Shown piece by piece: positions 40,152-61,672 of a DNA stretch of 64,000 bases. The notes below the pieces were generated by a model, which searched no databases, was not told the origin of the DNA, and saw nothing but the letters and a program-made list of their open reading frames with translations. The DNA comes from Candidatus Bathyarchaeota archaeon (GTDB lineage: Archaea; Thermoproteota; Bathyarchaeia; Bathyarchaeales; Bathyarchaeaceae). Position 1 is the first letter of the stretch. Every line of letters starts with the position of its first letter. The position numbers and the translations under genes are program-made. The stretch lies in the NCBI GenBank assembly GCA_963806645.1, contig CAWDYQ010000005.1:79778-143777 (forward strand). Direction: 5' to 3'.

Positions 40152-40439
40152 TTTTTTTCACTTCTCCTAAAAGCTGAAGTATTTTACGATAATAAATAAT
40201 AATTGAATTCTTTTTATTTAAATTTAAAGCTATCTTCATAATAATAACAGTGAAAAAAAATTTTCAATACAATTAAAGTCAACCAAGTTAAATTGTCACA
40301 AAAACAAAATTTATTACAACCCAATAAAAAGGGCAACTAGCCTTTTTTCTTTATTTTTTTTGAGAATTTAAAACTGTTTTTAAGCATCACATTATTATTT
40401 GTCATTTTTTATTTTACGTTAGAAAGGTATTGATTGGCA

Positions 40440-42230
40440 ATGGTTCGAATAGCGGTTCTCAACGAAGAACGATGTGAATCCAAACGTTGCGGCAGACCAT
40501 GTTATCGATTCTGCCCACCAGTGAGAAACAAGATTGAAGCAGTAATTTTCGAGGGCGAAACCCCTCAAATCGTGGAAAGCCTATGCGTAGGATGTGGAAT
40601 TTGCGTAAGAAAATGTCCATTCAAAGCGATCTCCATTGTCAATTTAGCCGATGAGCTAGAAACCGATTGCAGTCACCGATTTGGACCCAATACATTCAAA
40701 CTTTTTCGTCTACCAACACCCTCCCCAGGATTAGTCCTGGGTTTACTGGGACAAAATGGTATCGGAAAAACAACCGCCCTGCACGTTCTTTCTGGAGAAG
40801 TCAAACCTAACCTGGGACAATATGAAGAACCCCCAAACTGGACGGAACTTATTCAACATTTCCGCGGCTCGACATTGCAGGATTACTTCCAGCGATTAAG
40901 TCAAGGTAATTTGAAAGTTGTGCATAAGCCCCAATACGTTGATCGAATCTCCCGAGTTGTTTCTGGAAAAGTGGGGGATCTACTAAAAAAAGTTGATGAA
41001 CGGAACAAACTGACACAACTTACTGACCAACTTCAGCTAAAGACCATTTGGAACAGAAACCTGAAAATTCTAAGCGGAGGAGAACTTCAAAGAGTAGCTG
41101 TCGCTGCATCAATATGCAGAGAAGCAGACGTTTACCTTTTCGATGAACCCAGTAGTTACTTGGATGTGAAGCAGCGGCTTCAGGTCGCCAAGGCGATCAG
41201 ATCACTCAAAGACGATGACAAGACAGTTATTGTAGCAGAGCATGATTTGGCTATTCTTGATTATCTGTCAGATCAAATCTGCATTTTTTACGGTGACCCT
41301 GGAGTTTACGGTATAGTATCTCATGTCCACGGAGTTAGAGTTGGAATAAACATTTACCTTGAAGGTTATGTTCCAGATGAGAACGTGCGTTTCAGAAACG
41401 AACCAATAATCTTTGATGTTAAACCTCCGTTACCATCATTGACAGCTGGTCAATCACTACTTAAGTGGACTGAAATAAAGAAGTCATTCGAAGATTTCGA
41501 ATTTCAAGCATTGCCCGGGAGTGTGAAAAGGGGTGAAGTGGTTGGAATATTTGGACCCAACGGTATAGGAAAAACAACCTTTGTAAAAATGCTTGCTGGA
41601 CTTGAAGAAATTGACTCTGGAGAAACATCAACTGAAGATGAACTTAAAGTAAGTTACAAACCGCAGTATATTTCACCACAATATAATGGAACCGTAGAAG
41701 AATTGCTAAAGGAGACCACTCCCAAAGAGTTTGGAACAAGCCTGTACCGCAGCCAGATTCTTCAACCCCTAAAAATTTCTGATCTCATGGAACGTGACAT
41801 AAATGAGCTCAGTGGAGGGGAACTTCAAAGAGTTGCAATTGCGGCATGTCTATCCCGAGAGGCAGAGCTATATCTTCTTGACGAACCCAGTGCTTACTTA
41901 GATGTGGAAGATAGGCTTTCTGCTGCTCGTACGATTCGACGTGTGATCGAAAATAGAAAAGTTACTGCCTTTGTGGTAGAGCATGATGTTGTGGCTCAAG
42001 ATTTTATCGCTGATCGTTTAATGATTTTCTCTGGAGAACCTGGAGTTCGTGGTTTTGCTAATCCTCCAACAGATCTTCGTGAAGGTATGAACAGCTTTCT
42101 AAAGGACATGAATGTGACATTTCGTAGAGATCTGCAAACAAAACGACCGAGAGTGAACAAGGAAGGCTCCAGACTAGACCGAGAACAGAAAGATACGGGT
42201 GAATACTATTACATGCGCATTGAAGAATAA
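40440..42230 (+). CDS. abce1: ABCE1 / RNase L inhibitor-type ribosome recycling ATPase
   Basis: N-terminal FeS domain (CxxxxC...CP; CVGCGICVRKCP). Two ABC cassettes (GQNGIGKTT and GPNGIGKTT; LSGGELQRV twice). ATG 40440. Confidence 0.95.
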   Translation: MVRIAVLNEERCESKRCGRPCYRFCPPVRNKIEAVIFEGETPQIVESLCVGCGICVRKCPFKAISIVNLADELETDCSHRFGPNTFKLFRLPTPSPGLVLGLLGQNGIGKTTALHVLSGEVKPNLGQYEEPPNWTELIQHFRGSTLQDYFQRLSQGNLKVVHKPQYVDRISRVVSGKVGDLLKKVDERNKLTQLTDQLQLKTIWNRNLKILSGGELQRVAVAASICREADVYLFDEPSSYLDVKQRLQVAKAIRSLKDDDKTVIVAEHDLAILDYLSDQICIFYGDPGVYGIVSHVHGVRVGINIYLEGYVPDENVRFRNEPIIFDVKPPLPSLTAGQSLLKWTEIKKSFEDFEFQALPGSVKRGEVVGIFGPNGIGKTTFVKMLAGLEEIDSGETSTEDELKVSYKPQYISPQYNGTVEELLKETTPKEFGTSLYRSQILQPLKISDLMERDINELSGGELQRVAIAACLSREAELYLLDEPSAYLDVEDRLSAARTIRRVIENRKVTAFVVEHDVVAQDFIADRLMIFSGEPGVRGFANPPTDLREGMNSFLKDMNVTFRRDLQTKRPRVNKEGSRLDREQKDTGEYYYMRIEE

Positions 42231-47980: not shown

Positions 47981-49148
47981 TCACCTAAAGAATTGTATAC
48001 TGAAAGAGTACATAGCAGCAACTGCATCCCAGCTATATCTTTCCTTATATTTTCGTTCAATGAATTCGCGCGCGTTTTTTCCGAGTCTTTGGGCCATTTC
48101 AGGAGACTCCACTAAACAGAGAATTGCATCTGCTAGTTGCTTCACATTTCCTGATTCAACAAGAAGTCCAGTTTCATTTTGGATTACTAATTCGGATGTA
48201 CCTGCAACATTAGATGCAACTGTAGGTAACTGCGAAGCCATGGCCTCTAATACTGTGAGTGGCATTCCCTCAGTTAAAGAAGGGCGCACAAATATTCCTC
48301 CATCCTGAAATATTGCAGAAATGCTGGGAACTTTTCCAAGAAAAACAAAATTTTCACTAAGCCCTTTACTTGCAACCAATTCCTCAAATTGTGCTTTGTG
48401 TGGGCCATCTCCCACAATCTTGAACTTAATTTTTCGTGAACTTCTTGCGACAATTAATTCCGCAGCTTCTATAAGATATTTAAGACCTTTGTTGGGTAGA
48501 AGGCGACCAACAAATAAAACATTACAGGCTTCAGCATCAGAATTGACGTGTGCAGGTAAAAATCCCTCTAGATCGACACCGTTTTGTATCACTACGACTT
48601 TTTCTGGCGAAACACCAAGTGTAAGCATATAATCTCGAACAGATTTGCTGACTGCGATAACTTTATCGCTTGACGATTAACGTGAATATTCCTAAGCTGT
48701 ATTCATAGAACGAAGCAGTCAATGCTTTTAAGCGTCCAACTAATGCCAATTTTCGGACATCGCCCAAATGAGCTGTTATCACCAGTTTTTTATTAAAGAC
48801 ACGTTTTAACAAAACTGCCAATACCGATGTTGTAAAGAATATGTTGTGGGCGTGGATTATATCGGGACAGAAGTCCTTTGCGACCTTAAATGCACTAAAA
48901 ACGTTTTTTGGGAAACATAACTGGAGACCAAAATTTTCTGTTAAATCAAATGCAGGTAGTCTACAAACGTTGATTCCGTCAATTTCGTAATTGTCTTGTG
49001 AAGGACATTTTCCAAGTGTGATTACTAAAACTTCGCAGCCTTTTTCTGCGAGTCTTTTAGATGTTTCATAAACTACCTTTTCGACGCCACCGCCAATTTG
49101 TGGATAAAAATAGTCGCTAAGCATTAAGACTCGAAGCTTTGAACTCAT
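47981..49148 (-). CDS. GT4-family glycosyltransferase, one frame break near 48650
   Basis: MSSKLRVLMLSDYFYPQIGGGVEKVVYETSKRLAEKG (ATG 49148). The C-terminal half carries FVGRLLPNKG and EGMPLTVLEAMASQLPTVASNVAGTSELV. The connecting text VIAVSKSVRDY lies in a shifted frame. Confidence 0.8.
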
Positions 49149-49363
49149 GAATCTCGCCAATAACGGTGGATTGACGTATATTTTTCGGTGCGTAATATAA
49201 GCATAGTGGTGTGCAATTTTTTGTGTTTTATTATCGTTGCTTGAATGTTTTTGGATGAATATAAGATCCGTTTTTATGTTTGAATCCAAAAAGAATGATT
49301 TTTGAGAAAACTTATTAGGTTAAGTGTTACTGTTTATGATAATAGTGTTACTGGAGTGGTGAC

Positions 49364-50630: not shown

Positions 50631-50785
50631 GTTATAAAAAGTATGTGCGAATTCTAATACTTTTTTCTTTTAAAAAATATTTTTTAGAAAATAACCTAAT
50701 TCTGAGTTCCCCAAAATTTAAGCAAATAATAATTTTGGAGATAAAGGTTTTATGATTTGTGTGATAACGGTTAGTTGTGGAAATT

Positions 50786-51193
50786 ATGACTAAGATTGTT
50801 CGAGTGGGTGTCACTTTTCCTCCAGAACTGCTGAACGATCTGGATGAAATCATTCAAGAGATTGGTTATGACAGCCGATCAAAGGCTATTCAGGATGCTG
50901 TTACATCTTTTGTTACAGAGCAAAGACTCCTTCATAGAGAGAAGGGAAAAAAGGCTGGTGTATTGGTAATGGTATATGATCATGATGTAAAAGGCCTAGA
51001 AGACGATCTTATTGAGTCACAGCATCATCATCGAAAAGTAATAAATTCGGTTCTGCACGTACACCTTAGCGATAGAGAATGTCTTGAAGCGATTGCAGTC
51101 AAGGGTGATGCCGAAGACATAAGAAAACTTACCCAGGAACTGACAACAAGGAAAGGCGTAAAACAGGTCAGATCAACTATCGTTAGCTCTTGA
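50786..51193 (+). CDS. nikR: nickel-responsive regulator NikR (ribbon-helix-helix plus ACT-like metal domain)
   Basis: MTKIVRVGVTFPPELLNDLDEIIQEIGYDSRSKAIQDAV (RHH), then SQHHHRKVINSVLHVHLSDRECLEAIAVKGD (His/Cys nickel site pattern). Confidence 0.8.
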   Translation: MTKIVRVGVTFPPELLNDLDEIIQEIGYDSRSKAIQDAVTSFVTEQRLLHREKGKKAGVLVMVYDHDVKGLEDDLIESQHHHRKVINSVLHVHLSDRECLEAIAVKGDAEDIRKLTQELTTRKGVKQVRSTIVSS

Positions 51194-51282: not shown

Positions 51283-52131
51283 TTACGTTTTTTCCTTATT
51301 TTGAATATATTTCTTTATTTTGTCTACTATCTGGGCGAAGGCTTTTGAGGCAGGAGAATCAGGATTTTCTATAATAAAGGGATGCCCCTTATCAGAAGCT
51401 TCACAAATTCGAGGATCGATAGGTATTCTTCCCAAAAACGGGACCGAATGTTTCTCAGCAACTCTTTGGCCGCCTCCAGTCTTGAAGATTTGAGTTTCGG
51501 TACTGCATGTGGGGCAAATAAACCCGCTCATATTTTCAACTATTCCAATAATTGGAACATTCAGTTGTTTAGAGAATGTGATCGCTTTTTCTACAACATT
51601 TTGAGAAACCTCTGAAGGAATTGTGACTATTACAACGCCGTCTAATTCTGGGAGAAGTTTCATGACACTCAAAGGTTCATCTCCTGTTCCTGGAGGTAAA
51701 TCTATGAAAAGAAAATCCAACTCCCCCCAAACGATGTCAGTTAAGAACTGTTGGATTGCTCTCATTTTTAGGGGTCCACGCCAAACTACTGGAACCTCTG
51801 GTCCATCAAGTACAAATACCATCGATACAACCTTTAAACCCAGAGGACCCAACGCAGGAAAGGCTCCCACTGGCCCAACCCGAAGTTTTTGTTGCTCCAT
51901 ACCCAGCATCTTTGGAACGCAAGGACCATGAAGGTCTGCGTCTAAAAGTCCAACACGGTTTTCGTGACCTTGCAATGCAAATGATATGGCTAAATTAACT
52001 GCTGTAAGAGTTTTTCCAACGCCTCCTTTGCCGCTGATGATCGCGATTTTATGTTTAATCTTTTTCATTCTTATTTTAAGAACAGACTGCTCATCTAGAT
52101 CATTGGTGGTATTTTCATTTGCTTGCATCAA
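51283..52131 (-). CDS. Mrp/NBP35/ApbC-family Fe-S cluster carrier ATPase
   Basis: ISGKGGVGKT deviant Walker A, DLPPGTGD, ENMSGFICPTC (CxxC). Confidence 0.9.
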   Translation of the reverse strand: MMQANENTTNDLDEQSVLKIRMKKIKHKIAIISGKGGVGKTLTAVNLAISFALQGHENRVGLLDADLHGPCVPKMLGMEQQKLRVGPVGAFPALGPLGLKVVSMVFVLDGPEVPVVWRGPLKMRAIQQFLTDIVWGELDFLFIDLPPGTGDEPLSVMKLLPELDGVVIVTIPSEVSQNVVEKAITFSKQLNVPIIGIVENMSGFICPTCSTETQIFKTGGGQRVAEKHSVPFLGRIPIDPRICEASDKGHPFIIENPDSPASKAFAQIVDKIKKYIQNKEKT

Positions 52132-52256: not shown

Positions 52257-52965
52257 ATGGACATAAAGGGATTTATCGACGTTAGTTTCGTTGACTGGGA
52301 TTCCAAAATTACCTCAGTTATCTTCCTCCCAAATTGCAACTTTCGTTGTCCCTTTTGTCACAACGTAAATCTTGTTCTTAATCCTGAAAAACTAGAAACA
52401 ATACCAATGACATATCTGGATGATCAACTCGAACAACAGAAAAATTGGATTGACGGAATATGCATTACAGGCGGAGAACCAACCCTCCACAAAGATCTAC
52501 CTGAACTGTGTACTCTATTAAAGAAAAAAGGATTCTTAATCAAACTGGATACAAACGGTACTAATCCATCCTATGCTAAGGGAGCTTATTGCGAGAAGCC
52601 TCATAGATTATGTGGCCATGGACATCAAGGCACCACTTACTGACAAGAAATATTCCAAAGCAACTGGAGTTAATACAGAGAAAATGTTAAAAAATGTAAA
52701 GGAAAGCATAAAACTTTTGATAGAATCCAATATAGACTATGAATTCAGAACCACAGTTGTTCCTACGCTCCATGACGAAGAGGACATAAAACAGATATGT
52801 CACAGCTTGAAAGGATGCCAAAAATATATTTTACAGAAGTTTGATGTCAGCATTGGAAAAACAACTATAAATCCTGACTTGATATCAAAATCGTTTAGCG
52901 AAGAAGAAATGCAAAATTTTTTAGTTTCAGCTCAGGAAATAATTCCAAACACTAAACTTAGGTAA
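52257..52965 (+). CDS. radical SAM activating enzyme (anaerobic RNR activase / PflA-like), one frame break near 52590
   Basis: GFIDVSFVDWDSKITSVIFLPNCNFRCPFCHN, GICITGGEPTL and KLDTNGTNP. The C-terminal half continues in the overlapping ORF 52573..52965. Confidence 0.75.
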
Positions 52966-53869: not shown

Positions 53870-56800
53870 TTACGTAAAGCAGATCGGGTTTCTTATGTAG
53901 TCTTGATTTCTAAGTTTCTTAACCAGTATTGACTTTTTGCAATCTAATGGGTCATCACTTTGTGTTATGTTGATTTCTCCATCAAACAGATTAATGACTG
54001 CTTTTGATTGATCTGGAGGGTGCATCTCTGGATCCATGACTGCCAACATAGTAAATCCTTTAGATCCCAAATCTGTAATCAATTCTGAAATCCATTTACA
54101 AGTTGCTTTAGCTTCATAATCCAATATAACATTAGAAACAGTTCCAATACAAATCCGCTTCTTCTTTGATGGATCTATACTTCGATAAGCTTTAGCTAAT
54201 GAAATAGAAAGATTTGTGAGATCAGTTTTACTTCTAAGCTTGAAGATGTTTGGTAATTCAGGAACTTGAGTTTTAGGTTTAGGATTACACAAGAACAAAT
54301 AGAAATTGGGATTATCTAGCAGATTTTCTAAACCATCTGCTTCTGTAGAAACATAGAATACTATTTCATTTTCATTAATTCCAGCTTCTAAGAAAGTTCT
54401 TAACAATATATTCTCTTTCATCACTTGGAGAACCAGTCAAAACAACGGCATAAGCTTTAGGAATACCACCTAATAGAAGTGAATCAAGTTCTGGGGTTCC
54501 AGTAGAAATTCGGTTAGAAAGAACAACCTCTTCAACGTTTATTTTAATAGATTTCAATTGAATAGATCTGCTCTGTCCCCGTTCATCTAAGTAATGAACC
54601 TTAGGTTTAAGCTGATATTCTCCTTTCTTTGAAGGTTGAAGAACAAGCTTCACTTCTACCAACTTGAGAGGAGCAAGCTGTTTCCCCTTCATTTTTAAAC
54701 AAGTATCTTCTATTCGGTAAATTTCAGGTTTCTTTACCACAACAAAGTCTGAAGGAACAAAATCATCCACGCTCATCAATAAGGCAGGTTCTCTACCAGC
54801 ATTAACAAACTCAACAGACAAACAGAAGGATTCACCAACCTTAACTTCTTTAACCGTAGTAACTAAATTAGCTTGGACATTTGCATGTTCAAACCTTTCT
54901 AAACCAACTGAGACTTCATTTGTTGGAGATGGTGCTGAAAACGATAAAGTACTTGAAGCTATTGTAGGTGCTTGCATCACCTGACTTAAAGATATAGCTA
55001 ATGTTTTTTCTTCTCTAACATTAACCAAAATTTCTTGCACCTGAGCTGTCTTTTCTGGTTGCTTAGCTTTCATAAATGAGCCAGCAGCAATCTGCAACAA
55101 ATTCTCAGCCATCTGATACTGCTTAGCCTTTTTCTCAGGATCAATCTCGCTTTCAGCCTGATTCATAAAAACATAAGCATCAAACAAACGAAGAGTAGCC
55201 TTAGCATACTCTGAAGCATTCTTAAATCCAGCTTGAAGGTAGCTGGTAGCAGCATCCTTAATGTATTGCTTAGCTAATGCATTTTCCTTTAAATCCATAC
55301 TAGTTTTATACTTTAAGCCCGAAGCTAATCCTCTACAAAAATTGCTGTTACCTAAAACCCAAAGACTGGCCTTTTTTGTGAAGCAGTGTTCTTTTGCTTG
55401 CTCAAAAAGTTCTGCAGCTTCTAGATAGGATTCAGAGGAGGTAGTTTCTTCTGCATTTGCCATCTTCTCCCAAGCCTGGCACAGAATCGCAATATATTTT
55501 AGTTCTTTACGTTCAGCCTCAACTTCTATCATATCAATTATTTCGGAGATACTTTGTGTTGCTTCTCTATATTTTCTTGAGCTAAGCAGATACTTGCCTT
55601 CTCTGTCTAACAGTTTTGCTTCTTCCATAAAGATACGTGCTTCACAGTATTTCCGTCTAACTTCAGAAGCTCCGAATAAATTCTGGATTATTTCCTTTTC
55701 ATCTGCAGAGGTGATTTGGGGCATTTTTTGTTTGATTGATTCTTGGGCTTTGCTAAACTGTTCGGATGCTTTTTGGAATGCTTGTTTTGCCTGTTGAGTG
55801 TTCTCTTTTCTGCTAAGTCCTTCTGCCTCTTCCATATGTGACCAAGCAAAATAATTGGATGCTAAATAACTCCAAGAATCTGTTGATTCATGAAGCTTAG
55901 CAGCCTGTTCAAAGTGTTTTTGAGACTCTTCGTAATCCCCAATGGAGTGAAAATATCTGGCTTGCTCGATTTTACTCCAAGCTTCCATATAAAAAAAATG
56001 TTCTCCGAAGAAGTCTTTGAGTTGTGAAATTTTTTTGGAGGCAAGGTCATATGCTTGCGATGCCAATTCATAACTTGTTGAGGCTTCCTGAAACTCACTA
56101 GCCTTATGTTGAAGTTGAGCTAGTTGCCAATATGACTCAGCCACATGCGTGGGCAATTCTGCTTTCCTAAAATAGGCTGATGCTTGCTTGTAGGCTTCCA
56201 ATGCTTTATGCAAACTTACTTGGTCTTGGGTTACGGAGAAAAATTGCTTTTGAATTCCTCCAAGCTGATGGTAGTATCGTCCGAAATTTAGATATGAGCC
56301 AGCAGTGAACTGCAGTTTTGGTGTTCTATTCATAAATTCGATACTCCTCTCAATTGAAGCATTTGCCTGATTTAGCGATTTGATCTTCTCAGTACGACAT
56401 GTTTCTGTTTTAGCAAGTTCCTTTTGTATCATCGCTAACTGACTGAAGTTAGCAGCAAAGAAAGAAAATGTAGCCTTACTCATTTCCTCTAAATACTTCA
56501 AATTATTCTTAATAGCAAATTGAGCTTTGTTGAGCAACTTTCTTTTTTCATCAATTTCGTTATTAGATACTGCAAGTTCCCATAAAACGTCGCTCAAAAC
56601 GACAGTAATTCGGTCATAATAATATTTCCAACCTTGAAAACGTTCTCTTTCCTTCTCAATTAGTTCTAATGCTCTTTCAAGAATTGCCTTTTTTGTTCTT
56701 GGATTAGTTTCATATTCTGCAAGACTATGAAGTCCATTACAAAAGAAATGAAGAGAATTATAAACACCTGGAGTGTTGTTGATTATTTGATAGTTATTTC

Positions 56801-57875
56801 CAGCTTCTCGGCTTATTCTTATGGCGTTCTTACAATACTCCTTTTGTATATTGGGATCTTCTTCAATCCAGGCCCTATTCAGAATTAACCAACTTTTCGA
56901 ATTTTTTCCATTACTTGTTAATAGATTATCGCGAGTAATTCTTCCATATTCTATAGTTTTCTCACAAAACTCCATTTGTAAGATGGGATTTGGAACAACA
57001 AACCTTGAGTTAGCAAAACTTACTGCAAAGGCTGACCAACCGATTAACCAAGCCTCATTAATCTGCTGAGCTAGTTCTAAAGCCTTACATGAGTAGTTTC
57101 GACTCTTCTCATTTAATTGCTTGAGTTTTTCTTTAGATTCAAATATCCAATTACTAAAAATGTAATACAAACTGGCAAAACAGTAAGCTCTTGCAAGCTC
57201 GAAGTCATCATCCAACTTCAAAAATATAGCTATTGCTTTTTCAGCGAGAGCTATACATTCTTTATAGATAGCGCTAAATTCAGAATGTGACGAAACAAGG
57301 GTAAATCGATCATGCCAAAACGTGCAATTTTCAATTAGATTATTGCATGTTTTGCCCACAGAATACATGTCACCAATTTGTTCATAAGCTTCTAGCACTT
57401 GATTTTCGAGATTCCACCACTTAGTAAGGAGATGCTTTTTTTGTGATGGGTATCTCTCAATCAAAGATTGTGTAAAGAAAACCATAGCATTAGCATGGTT
57501 AATTCTTGTCTGATAATTCTCTTCATTTATCTCAAGAAGTTCGGATTCTTTTTCATAAGCTTGTGTGGCCTGTTTCATGTGTTTTTGATATTCATTATTG
57601 CTTTGTGTTTGAAATGCAGCCTTATAGTAACAAAAACCAATGTTTTCTTGTATTTCAGCTGCTTTAAGTGCATTCTTATTTTTTATTAACAAATCGATTG
57701 CTTTTTTGTAATATTTTATTGCTTGAAACCATTCATACTTTTTCTCTAACTCTTTTGCTTTCGTTTGAAGAGACTCCAAGTTCCCGTCCTGCAAAGATAT
57801 CAACAGACAATTATTATTAGTGTAGCATTGAAATAATTTGTTACAACGTTTGTTGTGGGAAAATGCTATATTCAT
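53870..57875 (-). CDS. giant TPR-like repeat protein with a beta-sandwich domain and a degenerate KaiC/RecA-like C-terminal domain; one frame break near 54400
   Basis: The 1166-aa ORF contains about 950 aa of helical Ala/Tyr/Lys/Glu repeats (TPR-like). It is followed by VKVGESFCLSVEFVNAGREPALL... (CARDB/Ig-like) and ISTGTPELDSLLLGGIPKAYAVVLTGSPSDERE (KaiC-type N-terminus without GKT). It continues after a shift in ORF 53870..54424 (ILLRTFLEAGINENEIVFYVS...). Confidence 0.75.
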
Positions 57876-57913
57876 TTTTCAACGAAGGTTATTAAGCTTA
57901 GGAGAGAGACACT

Positions 57914-59215
57914 GTGTTCGATTGTGAGGCCTTAACTAAGGTTCAATCGATTATCCTGATTACATTAATTGTTATTGCTGGAGTAGCTGCTTACATCCTT
58001 TTAAGGGGAAACGAATCATCAGAGAACACAATTAATATTGGTTTTCTTGCTGATTTGGATGCTTTAAGGGGGAAGAAGGATTGGCAATGGACAATTCTGG
58101 CTGCTGAACAAATTAATGATGAAGGGGGATTATTAGGAAGAAAACTGGAGATAATCGCTGTAGACCATGATTTAGAGAGTGGTGCAGACATGAATGCGGT
58201 CAGTTCTGCGATGACTAGACTAATAACTTATCATGATGTAGATTTTATTTTAGGATTTGTACTTGGCGATTCTGCAATGGTGTGCCAAGATATTGCTTCT
58301 CTTCACAAAAAAGTTTTCATTGCTTATCCTGGAGCTACAGATAATTTTACTCAACGAGTTTTGGATGACTATGAAAATTATAAGTATAGTTTCAACATCA
58401 TATTTAACACTACATCAACGTTCATTGGTATGACAGACAATCTCCTAGTTTTAAGGGAGGATACGGGATTCAATAAAGTTGGCTATTTAGGTGAAGATTT
58501 GGGAATTACGCACGCGATAGCAGCTGGGCTAGAAAACTTTTTGCTAAAAAATGGTTTTGAGCTTGTATACAAAGGAAAGTTTCCATTAGGGACTGTCGAT
58601 TTTTCAAGTTATTTTGCTGCTGCTGAACAAGCAGGAGTAGAAATTTTGCTGCCCTTAATTGGACTAGATGGAGGTATACCATTCATTAAGGAATATTATG
58701 ATCGCCAATCACCAATGGTTGTTTATGGGGGAGTACTTACAAGAGCATCAGATCCAGAAGCGTGGGAGGCAACAGACGGAAAATGTGAACACGTCAGTAC
58801 TGGCAGTCTTGCTATGAATGCAAAATATTCTTTGACAAGTAAGACTTTACCGGCAAGAGAAGCATACATCGCTAAATGGGGAGAACCCCCGGGATCACCC
58901 GCTGCCTTTGACGCAGTTCGCTATATTTTGGCTGATGCGATTAAGCGAGCTGGTACGATTGAAACAGAAGCGGTTATCAAAGCTTTAGAAGAAACCAGTA
59001 TAGAAACCACCTCTGCAAGAAATTTTGTTTTTACAGAATCTCATTCTGTAATGATGGGAGAGAATCCTAATGATCCAAATGCTGACTATATGTTGGCTTT
59101 GATTTTCCAATGGCAAAACGGAGAGCTAATCCCTGTTTACCCAAAAAAGATCATGGAAGAAGCTGGAGCAACCTACACTTTTCCTGATTGGTCTGGTCCA
59201 TGGGATGAACAATAA
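57914..59215 (+). CDS. membrane-anchored periplasmic-binding-protein type I domain protein (LivK / branched-chain amino acid binding-like)
   Basis: AGGAGAGAG SD and GTG start, with an N-terminal TM anchor. INIGFLADLDALRGK...AAEQINDEGGLLGRKLEIIAVD... follows the Peripla_BP_6 pattern. No permease or ATPase genes are adjacent. Confidence 0.8.
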   Translation: MFDCEALTKVQSIILITLIVIAGVAAYILLRGNESSENTINIGFLADLDALRGKKDWQWTILAAEQINDEGGLLGRKLEIIAVDHDLESGADMNAVSSAMTRLITYHDVDFILGFVLGDSAMVCQDIASLHKKVFIAYPGATDNFTQRVLDDYENYKYSFNIIFNTTSTFIGMTDNLLVLREDTGFNKVGYLGEDLGITHAIAAGLENFLLKNGFELVYKGKFPLGTVDFSSYFAAAEQAGVEILLPLIGLDGGIPFIKEYYDRQSPMVVYGGVLTRASDPEAWEATDGKCEHVSTGSLAMNAKYSLTSKTLPAREAYIAKWGEPPGSPAAFDAVRYILADAIKRAGTIETEAVIKALEETSIETTSARNFVFTESHSVMMGENPNDPNADYMLALIFQWQNGELIPVYPKKIMEEAGATYTFPDWSGPWDEQ

Positions 59216-59303
59216 ATAATGAAGATTATGTAATAGAATAAAGATTTCAGGTTGACTACCGAAGAAATTAAATTTTTAAACCAGTAAAATAAAAAAGATC
59301 AAC

Positions 59304-59615
59304 ATGAATCATTCTGGGAAAAAACATCGAGTTTGTCCTTGTGAAAGTTGCATCTACGAGTTTGAATTAATTGAAGGAGAACAACTTAAAGGGTTAATTT
59401 CTTCTAGTTGCGAAATCGACATTTACTTTGTTAACAATTCAAATTTCTCTGCTTGGCTATCTGGACAAAGTTTTAATCATGAATGCTGTAAAGAGTCTGT
59501 TTCCTATGCAGAAATACATTATTCTGCTTCAAAAGAAGGAACATGGTATCTGCTAATAGAAAATAATGGAAAAAAAACAGCCAACATTGAGATTATGTTA
59601 AATGTTTCAAGTTAG
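59304..59615 (+). CDS. small beta-sandwich protein, DUF1883-like
   Basis: YEFELIEGEQLKGLISSSCEIDIYFVNNSNFSAWLSGQSF...EGTWYLLIENNGKKTANIEIMLNV parallels the DUF1883 pattern as I recall it. Confidence 0.5.
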   Translation: MNHSGKKHRVCPCESCIYEFELIEGEQLKGLISSSCEIDIYFVNNSNFSAWLSGQSFNHECCKESVSYAEIHYSASKEGTWYLLIENNGKKTANIEIMLNVSS

Positions 59616-60002
59616 CTATTCATTAAATTTTTTCATCAGAAAGATGTTTCCTTGTCCATCTCGGGCACCAACACCTTGTGTGTCAAGTGCAGCAACCGTT
59701 TTTTTTGAGGGATAAAGGGTTGCGAATGTATAAACTCCAGAATCACAAGCGTAAACCACCAAAATGTCTGAGTTAAGTTGTGGTTTTTTAGCCAAATCAA
59801 GGTTACATGCCATAGGAATCAGTGCTGTATCAACTACATCATATCCATCAGCCTTTAGTCTTTCAGCTATTTCATCCATCTTTTCTTTACCTCCTGTTTC
59901 ACACGCACGGGCACAAGAATTACAGGAAATAATGCCAATTTTTTTCCATTTTTTCAGCATACCCTTGACGATTCCATATGGTTTGCAACTTGTAACAATC
60001 AT
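59616..60002 (-). CDS. hypothetical Cys-containing protein
   Basis: 128-aa track ORF with SCNSCARACETGG and YACDSG motifs. Family not recognised. Confidence 0.5.
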   Translation of the reverse strand: MIVTSCKPYGIVKGMLKKWKKIGIISCNSCARACETGGKEKMDEIAERLKADGYDVVDTALIPMACNLDLAKKPQLNSDILVVYACDSGVYTFATLYPSKKTVAALDTQGVGARDGQGNIFLMKKFNE

Positions 60003-60101
60003 AAAATCCCTTTAAGTATTCTGAGTCATTTTTCTATAAAATATTTATCCCCATTAATAACTAGGATTCTAAATAAAATAAACCAGGATAGTTATCCTGA
60101 T

Positions 60102-60875
60102 TTAGCCCCTCCCAAACAATGTTACGTCAGGAAAGATTTCAACGCCGTTGGTATCAATTGTATAAGGAACAACGTTTGGATTAATTTTAACACCTCTCAT
60201 TTTTGTAACCTGCAAAGCCCGTGTTGTAACTCCATTAGAAAACAAAGTCTGTGCAAGAATGACTCCATGCGCCAAATATTCTTCAACTGAAACCTTACGA
60301 TTAAGACTCAAACGTCCCAATTCTGAAGTTACAAGAGTGGTGATCCCTAAATCTGACAAAGACTCAAATAAATCAACAATAGAGTTTCTTCGCTCAATAG
60401 GATCAGGAAAGCGTTGAAAAAGTGTAGCAAGCGTATCCACTACAACTCTCTTGGCGTTAATTCTGTGAATTTCAGACTCTATTGATTCAACTAACCGGTC
60501 TATCGGTAGTTGCTTAGTTCTCAAGTTGGCTCCGTTTTCTCCAAATTTTGCTCCTAATGCTGCAGATCTTGACATTCGAGTAGCATCTAAAAAGACAAAT
60601 TTTCCCTCTTCTTCAGCTTTCTTGAAATCCCATCCAAAATTCTGCATTTCAACCAAATAATGGTCTTTGCCTTCATCTAAACTCACAAAAATTGCACCTT
60701 CCTCTAAGTCACTAATTCCTTTGTATAAGAATTGAGAACAAAGAATTGTTTTTCCAGATCCAGGTCCCCCAACAAGCAAAATTACTCTCCCTTCTGGGAA
60801 ACCTCCACTTACTAAATCATTTAATCCTGGGATTCCAGTTTCAACCGTATTCATTTTTTTCACCTTTTTAAACAA
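60102..60875 (-). CDS. single-domain KaiC/RadA-like ATPase (canonical Walker A)
   Basis: VETGIPGLNDLVSGGFPEGRVILLVGGPGSGKTILCSQFLYKG, with Walker B-like VVVDTLATL. 257 aa. Confidence 0.85.
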   Translation of the reverse strand: MFKKVKKMNTVETGIPGLNDLVSGGFPEGRVILLVGGPGSGKTILCSQFLYKGISDLEEGAIFVSLDEGKDHYLVEMQNFGWDFKKAEEEGKFVFLDATRMSRSAALGAKFGENGANLRTKQLPIDRLVESIESEIHRINAKRVVVDTLATLFQRFPDPIERRNSIVDLFESLSDLGITTLVTSELGRLSLNRKVSVEEYLAHGVILAQTLFSNGVTTRALQVTKMRGVKINPNVVPYTIDTNGVEIFPDVTLFGRG

Positions 60876-61035: not shown

Positions 61036-61431
61036 TTATGTTAAACATATTGGATTTTTTATGTAATCTTGGTTTCTGAGTTTCTTTACTCTTATCGATT
61101 TTTTGCATTCTAATGGGTCTTCGGTTTGGGTGATGCTGATTTCCCCATCAAAAAGTCAATGACCGCTGTGGCTTGGTCTAAAGGATGCATACCTGGATTC
61201 ATTACTGCTAAGCATTGTGAAGCCTTTTGAACTCATGTCAGTGATTAGTTCAGCAATCCATCTTCTGGTTGGTTCTGCATGATGACTAATCAGCACGTCA
61301 GAGACTGTCTCAACACAGATTCGTTTATTTTTTGAAGGTTCAACGTTACGATAGGCTTTAGCAAGAGATATTGATAGATTAGTTAAATCAGTTTTACTTC
61401 GAAGCTCGAAAACACGGAAATCTATACACAT
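61036..61431 (-). pseudogene. truncated, frame-broken paralog of the KaiC-like C-terminus of the 53870..57875 gene
   Basis: FELRSKTDLTNLSISLAKAYRNVEPSKNKRICVETVSDVLISHHAEPTRRWIAELITDMSSKGFTML aligns with FKLRSKTDLTNLSISLAKAYRSIDPSKKKRICIGTVSNVILDYEAKATCKWISELITDLGSKGFTML. Shifted frames continue as AVMNPGMHPLDQATAVI and FDGEISITQTEDPLECKKSIRVKKLRNQDYIKNPICLT*. Everything N-terminal to this is missing. Confidence 0.7.
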
Positions 61432-61594: not shown

Positions 61595-61672
61595 GCTCCG
61601 GTAGTATAGTCCGGTTAAGTATGACGGCCTCTCGAGCCGCCGACCCGGGTTCGAATCCCGGCCGGAGCACCA
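61595..61672 (+). tRNA. tRNA-Glu (anticodon CUC), CCA encoded
   Basis: Manual cloverleaf: acceptor GCUCCGG/CCGGAGC, D arm GUAU-AGUCCGGUUAA-GUAU, anticodon stem ACGGC/GCCGC (one A-C mismatch), loop CUCUCGA. T arm CCGGG-UUCGAAU-CCCGG, discriminator A, CCA. GC-rich against the AT-rich background. Confidence 0.9.

Follow-up and report, generated by a model that had tools for sequence, protein, structure and literature searches.

The locus considered here raises the question with which of its neighbours, if with any, a giant archaeal protein with a catalytically dead KaiC-like domain at its C-terminus is associated. It lies in a 64,000-nucleotide stretch of a Candidatus Bathyarchaeota contig (GenBank assembly GCA_963806645.1, contig CAWDYQ010000005.1, positions 79,778 to 143,777 of the forward strand), referred to below as the window. 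The protein is composed of TPR-like helical repeats, a beta-sandwich and an inactivated KaiC domain (iKaiC). Its gene is divergent from that of a membrane-anchored solute-binding protein of the periplasmic-binding-protein type (PBP), and a canonical KaiC-like ATPase gene is located 2.2 kb from the latter. A preliminary description of this DNA regarded the giant gene as clustered with both neighbours. Comparison with related loci gives good support to the view that the locus is one copy of an amplified, lineage-specific cassette of sediment Bathyarchaeota made up of a PBP gene and a giant TPR/beta-sandwich/iKaiC gene, and it is the PBP, not KaiC, that is the conserved partner of the giant protein.

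Conservation of the divergent gene pair

The cassette of the window comprises the following features.

53870..57779, minus strand: giant gene, coding for about 1302 aa from a TTG start and split by a 1-base insertion at 54396
57780..57913, between the two genes, no strand assigned: divergent control region of ~134 nt, conserved over 63 cassettes whose proteins are ~50% identical
57914..59215, plus strand: membrane-anchored solute-binding protein of the LIV family (Peripla_BP_6, PF13458, E=1.6e-30)

Related loci were collected from genomes (32 loci) and, in an independent scan, from metagenomes (79 contigs with 87 iKaiC copies), giving 111 loci of ~1 Mb in all (1.06 Mb including the window). 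The giant family is confined to assemblies of "Candidatus Bathyarchaeota/Bathyarchaeia" and occurs there in multiple copies: at least 8 on six scaffolds of the metagenome-assembled genome (MAG) JASFHP01, ~24 in the fragmented JARRMA01 and 3 in JAOZGY01. At ~20 copies of 5.4 kb each, the cassette would, by our estimate, account for ~5% of the ~2-Mb genome in some uncultured Bathyarchaeota. One giant-type iKaiC is encoded on a 4.3-kb contig (JARRKS010000372.1, L030) binned as a Flavobacteriaceae MAG; this MAG belongs to the same Spartina sample series as a Bathyarchaeota MAG, and its assignment is most likely a binning error.

A divergent PBP gene was found upstream of 56 of the 59 metagenomic giants that have at least 300 nt of upstream sequence, and at nearly all copies in the 32 genome loci; it is present in L001, L002, L005-L012, L014, L016, L019, L021, L022, L028, L029, L031, L043 and L044. 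Among the genome loci only L003 departs clearly from this pattern, and even there an N-terminal PBP remnant is left. Head-to-tail repeats of the whole PBP and giant unit were detected in L009, L010, L014, L016, L022, L028, L044 and L074. The clustering proposed in the preliminary description therefore stands, far beyond chance, for the PBP and fails for KaiC, which accompanies the cassette in 1 of 112 loci (the window alone), that is, no more often than by chance. What looked like a single odd gene turns out to be part of a defined and highly conserved unit, in which a PBP gene and a giant TPR/pseudo-KaiC gene are combined in a common promoter layout.

The giant gene itself is disrupted in the window. 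One protein is spread over two overlapping minus-strand open reading frames (ORFs), of 1166 aa at 54375..57875 and 184 aa at 53870..54424, and removal of the extra base yields a product of 1334 aa counted from the first ATG, in agreement with the earlier reconstruction of roughly 1335 aa. Aligned at the DNA level with its two nearest homologs (L043 and L044), the gene shows a single surplus C in the window.

54396..54396, minus strand: extra base causing the frameshift (homologs AAGAA-TTTCTTAG, window AAGAACTTTCTTAG)

Intact homologs (n=61) are ~1300 aa long and share 39-74% identity with the giant protein. The true start of the gene is most likely the TTG at 57779, as judged from the conserved AGGA Shine-Dalgarno-like sequence and TTG, from the disorder of the first 30 residues in the structural model and from the 1134-aa entry P0001; with this start the divergent gap amounts to ~134 nt and not to the 38 nt formerly measured.

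The giant gene of the window is either a pseudogene or the product of an assembly error. Within ~10 kb three genes are split by frameshifts, the giant gene included, the other two being a radical-SAM gene (52257..52965, plus strand) and a GT4-family glycosyltransferase gene (47981..49289, minus strand), each represented by two ORFs in different frames. The contig thus contains either indel errors or many decaying genes, and so the frameshift of the giant gene may be an assembly error and not real decay; if real, it may have left this copy inactive. Taken together with the reduction of a second copy to a remnant (see below), the frameshift could also mean that the adjacency is meaningless, the PBP and giant genes merely co-duplicating as a unit of which the window holds a dead pseudogene; tandem duplication alone would spread any pair of neighbours. 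Such an explanation seems distinctly unlikely, however. Besides the possible assembly error, the pairing, the orientation and the promoter layout persist at ~50% protein identity, the same layout survives the exchange of the N-terminal half of the giant protein for a STAND nucleoside triphosphatase (NTPase), and the shuffling of partners without loss of pairing implies selection for the arrangement.

The control region between the two genes contains four recognisable elements, two of them resembling the B recognition element (BRE) and TATA box.

57780..57816: conserved 5' leader with an AGGA Shine-Dalgarno sequence on the giant side (35-nt TAATAATGGTTTGTTGATAGCTTTGCAGGAC..AAC ahead of the TTG)
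57825..57842: BRE/TATA-like motif GTGAAAAATTATTTCAATAC facing the giant gene
57858..57880: mirror BRE/TATA-like motif facing the PBP gene
57901..57909: Shine-Dalgarno sequence of the PBP gene

A spacer with two back-to-back motifs suggests common control of both genes, and since its conservation exceeds the need of generic BRE/TATA elements, it may hold a shared operator or an RNA element.

The PBP has a type I periplasmic-binding-protein fold and a single N-terminal transmembrane segment (residues 12-30). Homologs of LivH or LivM were not found within the 64-kb window, which confirms the earlier view of a membrane-anchored LivK-type protein without ABC partners; the ABC matches in the window are due to an ABCE1/RLI-type twin-ABC protein with iron-sulphur (Fe-S) domains (40434..42230, plus strand), which is not a transporter. 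The PBP family comprises over 700 clusters, annotated as branched-chain amino-acid binding proteins. The signal-anchor of the cassette PBPs (ALTKIQSIILIAIIVVA...) is also that of the ortholog in Ca. Bathyarchaeum, the nearest PBP of that genome, which stands at the head of a simple LivK-HMGF operon; a TrmB-family regulator occupies the upstream slot there. Complete LivHMGF operons are located in or beside the cassette arrays of L002, L074, L077, L109 and L123; in L046 the two ATPase genes LivG and LivF stand alone beside the cassette, and in L043 an amino-acid permease gene lies downstream of the giant gene. In view of the shared anchor and of these operons, the cassette PBPs can be regarded as ordinary extracellular binding proteins, most of them orphans that presumably share a transporter. 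An attempt to derive the ligand from solved structures gave distant matches alone (E=5.5e-9 to 2.8e-4) and thus no assignment.

Downstream of the PBP gene another small gene is found.

59304..59615, plus strand: DUF1883-like small protein, an occasional passenger of the cassette

The resemblance to DUF1883 (PF08980) reported in the preliminary description was seen again as a weak match, yet its score of 17.7 bits (E=0.0034) falls short of the Pfam gathering threshold of 26. A homolog with 51% identity occupies the same position in L106 (4417..4725) only. A flippase gene was observed near the cassette in one locus (L096) and does not recur. On the other side of the giant gene the window encodes a NikR-like regulator (50777..51193, plus strand) and an NUBPL/ParA-type Fe-S cluster NTPase (51283..52131, minus strand), both of housekeeping type.

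Architecture of the giant protein and its pseudo-KaiC domain

From the N-terminus onwards, the giant protein consists of the following parts.

54975..57779, minus strand: TPR-like alpha-solenoid of 38 helices (AlphaFold2, AF2; Pfam TPR_12 and SNAP)
54894..54974, minus strand: Ser/Thr/Pro-rich linker (residues 968-994 of the 1166-aa ORF; predicted local distance difference test score, pLDDT, <50)
54531..54893, minus strand: BatD/DUF11/TRAP-beta-like beta-sandwich (weak Pfam BatD and TRAP_beta matches; AF2 strands)
53873..54530, minus strand: pseudo-KaiC domain (iKaiC) of RecA-like fold (PF06745, PDB profiles, AF2 and Foldseek)

In the AF2 model of the giant protein (alignment of 49 sequences, pLDDT 85.8) the TPR region recognised earlier takes the form of an all-helical solenoid of 38 helices over residues 33-967, followed by a disordered linker (968-994) and a beta-sandwich (~1000-1115). 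The Pfam search found TPR_12, the BatD/TRAP_beta matches being weak and sub-threshold. A Foldseek search with the solenoid retrieved generic giant TPR scaffolds (Ctr9, Ski3, IFT-A) and nothing more specific, and the beta-sandwich matched TRAP-beta (8btk_TB, root-mean-square deviation 2.7). Among paralogs the first ~560 residues of the solenoid are hypervariable and residues 560-967 are conserved. The linker, APTIASSTLSFSAPSPT (consensus APTIASSTxSFxAPxPT), is disordered by prediction, yet it belongs to the best-conserved stretches of the family, with A969, P970, S974, T976, F979, P982 and T985 invariant or nearly so; it may be phosphorylated or serve as a short linear motif for binding. No hydrophobic or transmembrane segment was found in the giant protein, and a hidden helix-turn-helix (HTH) domain or NTPase in its N-terminal region was looked for with Pfam, NCBIfam and the AF2 model and not found. 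The STAND-type order of a TPR sensor and a C-terminal effector is present, namely a TPR solenoid followed by the beta-sandwich and iKaiC; the N-terminal NTPase of STAND proteins is missing, no AAA_16 match being found by Pfam in the giant protein of the window.

The preliminary description assigned a KaiC-like fold to the C-terminal domain and noted SPSDERE in place of the Walker A motif. Both points were borne out by profile and structure comparison. In the Pfam search the C-terminal 218 aa matched positions 1-214 of the 231-position profile PF06745 (KaiC) with E=1.7e-13, and the PDB profile matches of the domain are SSO2452, PH0284 and KaiC. A second AF2 model, covering the last 350 residues (pLDDT 83.8), shows a RecA-like alpha/beta domain for which the top Foldseek matches were PH0284 (2dr3) and SSO2452 (2w0m), with a target TM-score of 0.74-0.75, and then KaiC CI. 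Two short motifs of this domain are of particular relevance.

54411..54434, minus strand: GSPSDERE at the position of Walker A (profile alignment; homolog conservation)
53909..53917, minus strand: K-L-R motif (KKLRNQ), equivalent of the trans-acting K224/R226 of KaiC CI

In profile alignments GSPSDERE coincides position by position with GEPGTGKT in SSO2452 and with GGPGSGKT in the window KaiC, so that the Walker A pattern GxxxxGK[ST] is absent from iKaiC. Over 61 full-length homologs the consensus is GPPSDERE, its P, D, E, R and E being conserved to 90% or more and its Arg without exception, and conservation across so many homologs indicates that the loss of the P-loop is ancestral and the replacement motif under selection. 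Walker B is likewise lost: opposite VIDS stands CIGT in the window copy and CVEI in the homolog consensus. Of the catalytic acidic pair one residue is kept (TEA). Meanwhile KKLRNQ, conserved to 90% or more among homologs, has KMRQ (EKMRQ) in SSO2452 and KMRG in the KaiC of Bathyarchaeota as its aligned counterparts. In KaiC CI, K224 and R226 of the K-[LM]-R strand contact the ATP of the neighbouring subunit (PMC2777353). With its own P-loop lost and K-x-R retained, iKaiC bears the marks of a pseudo-ATPase, one that could still take a place in a ring.

The name iKaiC for inactivated KaiC domains and their listing among the output domains of archaeal response regulators are taken from PMC5847659, which also summarises the proposal that KaiC-like ATPases are archaeal signalling hubs (Makarova, Galperin and Koonin 2017). 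The two tandem domains of circadian KaiC were not seen, the giant's domain and the 257-aa neighbour being single-domain each; the NCBIfam models of circadian KaiC score far under their cut-offs, and no member of the KaiA or KaiB families turned up among the window proteins in general Pfam scans, no dedicated search having been run.

The neighbouring KaiC gene and the decayed remnant

On the far side of the PBP gene two further features bear on the proposed link with KaiC.

60102..60875 (alternatively 60102..60854), minus strand: canonical single-domain KaiC-like ATPase, 257 aa (PF06745, E=2.7e-59; GGPGSGKT)
61039..61413, minus strand: degraded 3' portion of another giant-type gene (tblastn, three-frame translation)

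The first of them is indeed the canonical KaiC-like ATPase that the preliminary description took it for. There it was suggested that the TPR scaffold might dock, by way of its dead KaiC domain, onto the hexamer of this neighbouring KaiC, with the PBP as a possible sensor input. The pattern of a RecA-like fold with K-x-R kept and the P-loop lost is that of a subunit completing the ATP site of its neighbour, the active KaiC gene is close at hand in the window, and KaiC orthologs are widespread in Bathyarchaeota, so that a partner would be available in trans. The idea was made to depend on a conserved KaiC neighbourhood in related genomes, and none was found. When all ORFs of the 111 loci were searched by tblastn and with a hidden Markov model of 60 KaiC orthologs, no KaiC-like gene with a Walker A motif was detected within 9-10 kb of ~150 copies, save for one RadB/Rad51-like gene (L101). 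The other Walker A matches in these loci belong to an AAA_18 kinase-like gene (L056) and to the STAND domains of variant giants. A conserved KaiC neighbourhood was therefore rejected, the 111 loci being devoid of an active KaiC-like signalling gene, and the KaiC gene beside the cassette is most likely a fortuitous neighbour, an adjacency peculiar to this contig.

Orthologs of the window KaiC are 65-82% identical throughout Bathyarchaeota, including Ca. Bathyarchaeum (CP070820.1), and have no cassette nearby. About 40 nt ahead of them lies the gene of a further KaiC-family paralog, whose C-terminal tail is rich in Cys.

L039, 5113..5961: Cys-tailed KaiC paralog
L040, 7293..7961: Cys-tailed KaiC paralog
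L041, 1271..1939: Cys-tailed KaiC paralog

The Walker A motif of this paralog is intact in Ca. Bathyarchaeum (GPSGVGKT); in two metagenome contigs its gene begins past the P-loop, no P-loop coding sequence being found upstream. Judging from these sequences, it represents a second, independent kind of P-loop-less KaiC, and one truly paired with canonical KaiC; it was not found in the window. Profile comparison places iKaiC at no shorter distance from KaiC or the Cys-tailed paralog than from other KaiC-like proteins.

The truncated copy of the dead domain upstream of the KaiC gene, which the preliminary description counted as a second dead-domain gene, is homologous to iKaiC (64% identity to residues 95-219, tblastn) and not a separate gene. 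It contains two frame changes, lacks the N-terminal part and ends in translation with ...KKLRNQDYIKNPICLT, as the giants do, which identifies it as the decayed remnant of a giant gene. The apparent recurrence of a dead-domain gene paired with a KaiC gene rests on this remnant and falls with it; the remnant was also rejected as a stand-alone partner gene, the Cys-tailed paralog that precedes KaiC elsewhere being different. A tRNA-Glu(CTC) gene (61595..61672, plus strand) lies directly beside the remnant, and the deletion that took away the remainder of this second giant gene ends near the tRNA. Directly downstream of KaiC, a Cys-containing ORF of 128 aa (59616..60002, minus strand) remained unmatched in searches of Pfam, NCBIfam, PADLOC and PHROGs, and none of the related loci contains a homolog. 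Viewed in the direction of the giant gene, the window gives the impression of an earlier tandem array, KaiC and the 128-aa ORF being situated between its two units.

With the KaiC orthologs residing in other, cassette-free neighbourhoods by another paralog, the remnant being a decayed giant and the iKaiC profile pointing to no particular KaiC, docking onto the neighbouring KaiC appears improbable. As an extracellular protein with an ordinary anchor, moreover, the PBP would have no direct way of signalling to a giant protein that is soluble and devoid of membrane segments, and its role as a direct sensor input was not upheld. Docking of iKaiC onto KaiC-type rings in trans is possible on the strength of the retained motif, though it draws no support from the genomic context.

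Variation, module exchange and a proposed role of the cassette

Mean pairwise identities over 53 intact cassettes differ greatly between the parts.

N-terminal ~560 residues of the giant protein: 35%
Middle TPR region: 62%
Beta-sandwich: 79%
iKaiC: 70%
PBP: 53%

Hypervariable receptors in many copies call to mind conflict or immunity systems, and STAND-related TPR receptors might guard surface binding proteins used as virus receptors. The multiple copies, the tandem arrays, the shuffling of cassettes and their frequent disruption would suit such a role, as would STAND-fused variants with weak BrxD-like N-termini. This is nevertheless very unlikely: a defence-system or viral origin was rejected after nothing significant was found in PHROGs or in PADLOC, the latter giving marginal BrxB, BrxD and TPR matches alone (E of 7.7e-5 or weaker), there is no nuclease, protease or other killing effector, and the neighbours are housekeeping and transport genes.

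The beta-sandwich/iKaiC module is shared with a variety of proteins. A profile of the beta-sandwich and iKaiC run against 1.84 billion representative proteins retrieved 322 clusters at E <=1e-30. The architectures sampled among them include an AAA_16/NB-ARC STAND NTPase with TPR, beta-sandwich and iKaiC; MalT-like TPR, FIST or DUF11 with iKaiC; and a Ser/Thr kinase with iKaiC, AAA_16 and TPR. In the entries P0397, P0434, P0381 and P0420, iKaiC is joined to FIST, to a Ser/Thr kinase with STAND/TPR, to DUF11 or, N-terminally, to TPR repeats. To judge by its associations, the iKaiC subfamily behaves as a promiscuous signalling module.

A STAND NTPase domain was identified in the sister variants P0324 and L018. 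P0324 has only the last 345 residues in common with the giant protein and is still accompanied by a divergent PBP (L042), and the STAND variants of L042 (2689..6186), L018 (3625..7167) and L032 (743..4429) all keep the divergent upstream PBP gene. In L107 (13..3992) a STAND-like N-terminus, seen by tblastn only, is joined to giant TPR residues 471-1000; this contig starts at the gene and stands outside the count of PBP pairing. Relatives with TPR and beta-sandwich that lack iKaiC have no PBP neighbour. Two of these are P0068, found beside a beta-eliminating lyase, and P0073, with a C-terminal CN_hydrolase domain; the iKaiC-less genes in L036 (8001..11303) and L038 (955..5145) fit this description, one following directly on a beta-eliminating lyase among amino-acid fermentation genes and another bearing a C-terminal carbon-nitrogen hydrolase domain. 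The link with the PBP therefore tracks the iKaiC-bearing proteins.

Since the PBP association follows the conserved beta-sandwich/iKaiC module and not the variable region, a structural or chaperone role may also be envisaged, with a nucleotide-independent ring serving as a platform for biogenesis, export or docking of the PBPs or of the ABC transporter. TPR solenoids are common in chaperones and scaffolds, and the acidic SDERE loop with K-x-R could allow ATP-independent self-assembly. A 560-residue hypervariable N-terminus would be unexpected in a general biogenesis factor, however, the same PBP family operates without a giant gene in Ca. Bathyarchaeum, and STAND, FIST and kinase domains, as found in the sister architectures, are characteristic of signalling proteins, all of which makes a role of this kind unlikely.

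The reading that we prefer, tentatively and with somewhat less than an even chance of its being correct, is that the giant protein is a MalT-like cytoplasmic sensor/scaffold linked with uptake systems that depend on binding proteins, its pseudo-KaiC being the effector that oligomerises. The MalT-like logic is drawn from the STAND-fused sisters, the position by PBP and Liv genes and the TrmB-family regulator in the corresponding slot of Ca. Bathyarchaeum. The PBP would feed a LivHMGF-type ABC transporter, usually encoded elsewhere. The giant protein would be cytoplasmic and non-enzymatic, its hypervariable N-terminal TPR region being the presumed recognition or sensor part and the conserved TPR body and Ser/Thr-rich linker leading to the beta-sandwich and pseudo-KaiC, the presumed oligomerisation and effector part. 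What the variable solenoid senses might be a ligand in the cytoplasm or the transporter's state. Pseudo-KaiC, with no ATP binding of its own and the K-x-R finger kept, would then assemble into a ring, either homomeric, the acidic SDERE loop acting as a phosphate stand-in that faces K-x-R, or with active KaiC-family subunits, and the ring would relay the signal to the expression or activity of the uptake system. Domain architecture, conserved P-loop loss, K-x-R retention, pairing with the PBP, tandem arrays in many copies, Liv operons within them and the exchange of modules with STAND, FIST and kinase domains are established by the sequences; the regulatory role, the assembly of the ring and the identity of the downstream partner are what we infer.

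Several observations weigh against this MalT-like reading. No DNA-binding or other recognised output domain was found in the giant protein by Pfam, NCBIfam or AF2. The PBP domain is extracellular and the giant protein cytoplasmic, hence any coupling must be indirect. The window copy is frameshifted, and numerous copies in other MAGs are likewise broken. The divergence of the PBPs and that of the N-terminal regions are essentially uncorrelated (r=0.18, and ~0 among divergent pairs), co-evolution of the two having been looked for in 11 and then in 53 cassettes. PBPs that are 77% identical may be paired with N-terminal regions of 28-33% identity, and the converse also occurs. The lack of co-divergence argues against one-to-one cognate recognition, and cognate pairing was accordingly left unsupported; the discordant pairs mean that partners have been shuffled while the arrangement was kept.

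A bolder version would see in the cassettes an archaea-specific nutrient-sensing pathway in which up to ~24 STAND-derived receptors, each tied to a PBP, insert pseudo-KaiC into KaiC hub rings, with the linker as a phosphorylation substrate. We regard it as unlikely, but if true it would provide the first concrete input-to-hub wiring of the proposed archaeal KaiC signalling network; to our knowledge almost no inputs or wiring of archaeal KaiC hubs are known. Bathyarchaeota are abundant in marine and estuarine sediments, and the MalT-like mechanism, if true, would explain how the uptake of many substrates is tuned in them. If false, the cassette remains a lineage marker and an example of pseudo-enzyme recruitment. 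In either case it offers a pseudo-ATPase module, a hypervariable sensor region and a large panel of binding proteins.

The participation of iKaiC in archaeal signalling has already been published (PMC5847659); the cassette itself was not found described, and none of the papers searched reports its architecture, the GPPSDERE motif, the PBP pairing or the 8- to 24-fold amplification. The iKaiC and hub proteins of Archaea, as presented in PMC5847659, likewise employ a KaiC fold with a degenerate P-loop as a signal-transduction module fused to sensor-type domains; the cassette differs in its 950-residue solenoid, its beta-sandwich, GPPSDERE, the obligatory pairing with a PBP and the amplification.

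Among proteins of similar fold, the single-domain archaeal KaiC-like ATPases, such as SSO2452 (2w0m), PH0284 (2dr3) and ArlH, are the best whole-domain matches to iKaiC and have the K-[LM]-R strand in common with it. They are, however, stand-alone proteins of ~230-250 residues with an intact Walker A motif, the Lys-Thr of which is replaced by Arg-Glu in iKaiC, whereas iKaiC forms the C-terminus of a 1,300-residue protein. The cassette PBPs resemble LivJ/LivK-type PBPs, including orphans that share one transporter, in fold family, N-terminal anchor and occasional linkage to LivHMGF, and differ from them in being mostly orphans paired with a giant gene.

MalT of E. coli is a STAND regulator controlling binding-protein-dependent transport. 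Regulators of the MalT type have in common with the giant protein a large TPR sensor, a C-terminal effector and a gene divergent from that of a binding protein or ABC transporter, and the sisters P0324, L018 and L032, and to judge by tblastn L107, carry the AAA_16 STAND NTPase. In contrast to MalT, the giant protein has neither an NTPase domain nor an HTH and its effector is a pseudo-KaiC; any output must therefore run via protein-protein contacts.

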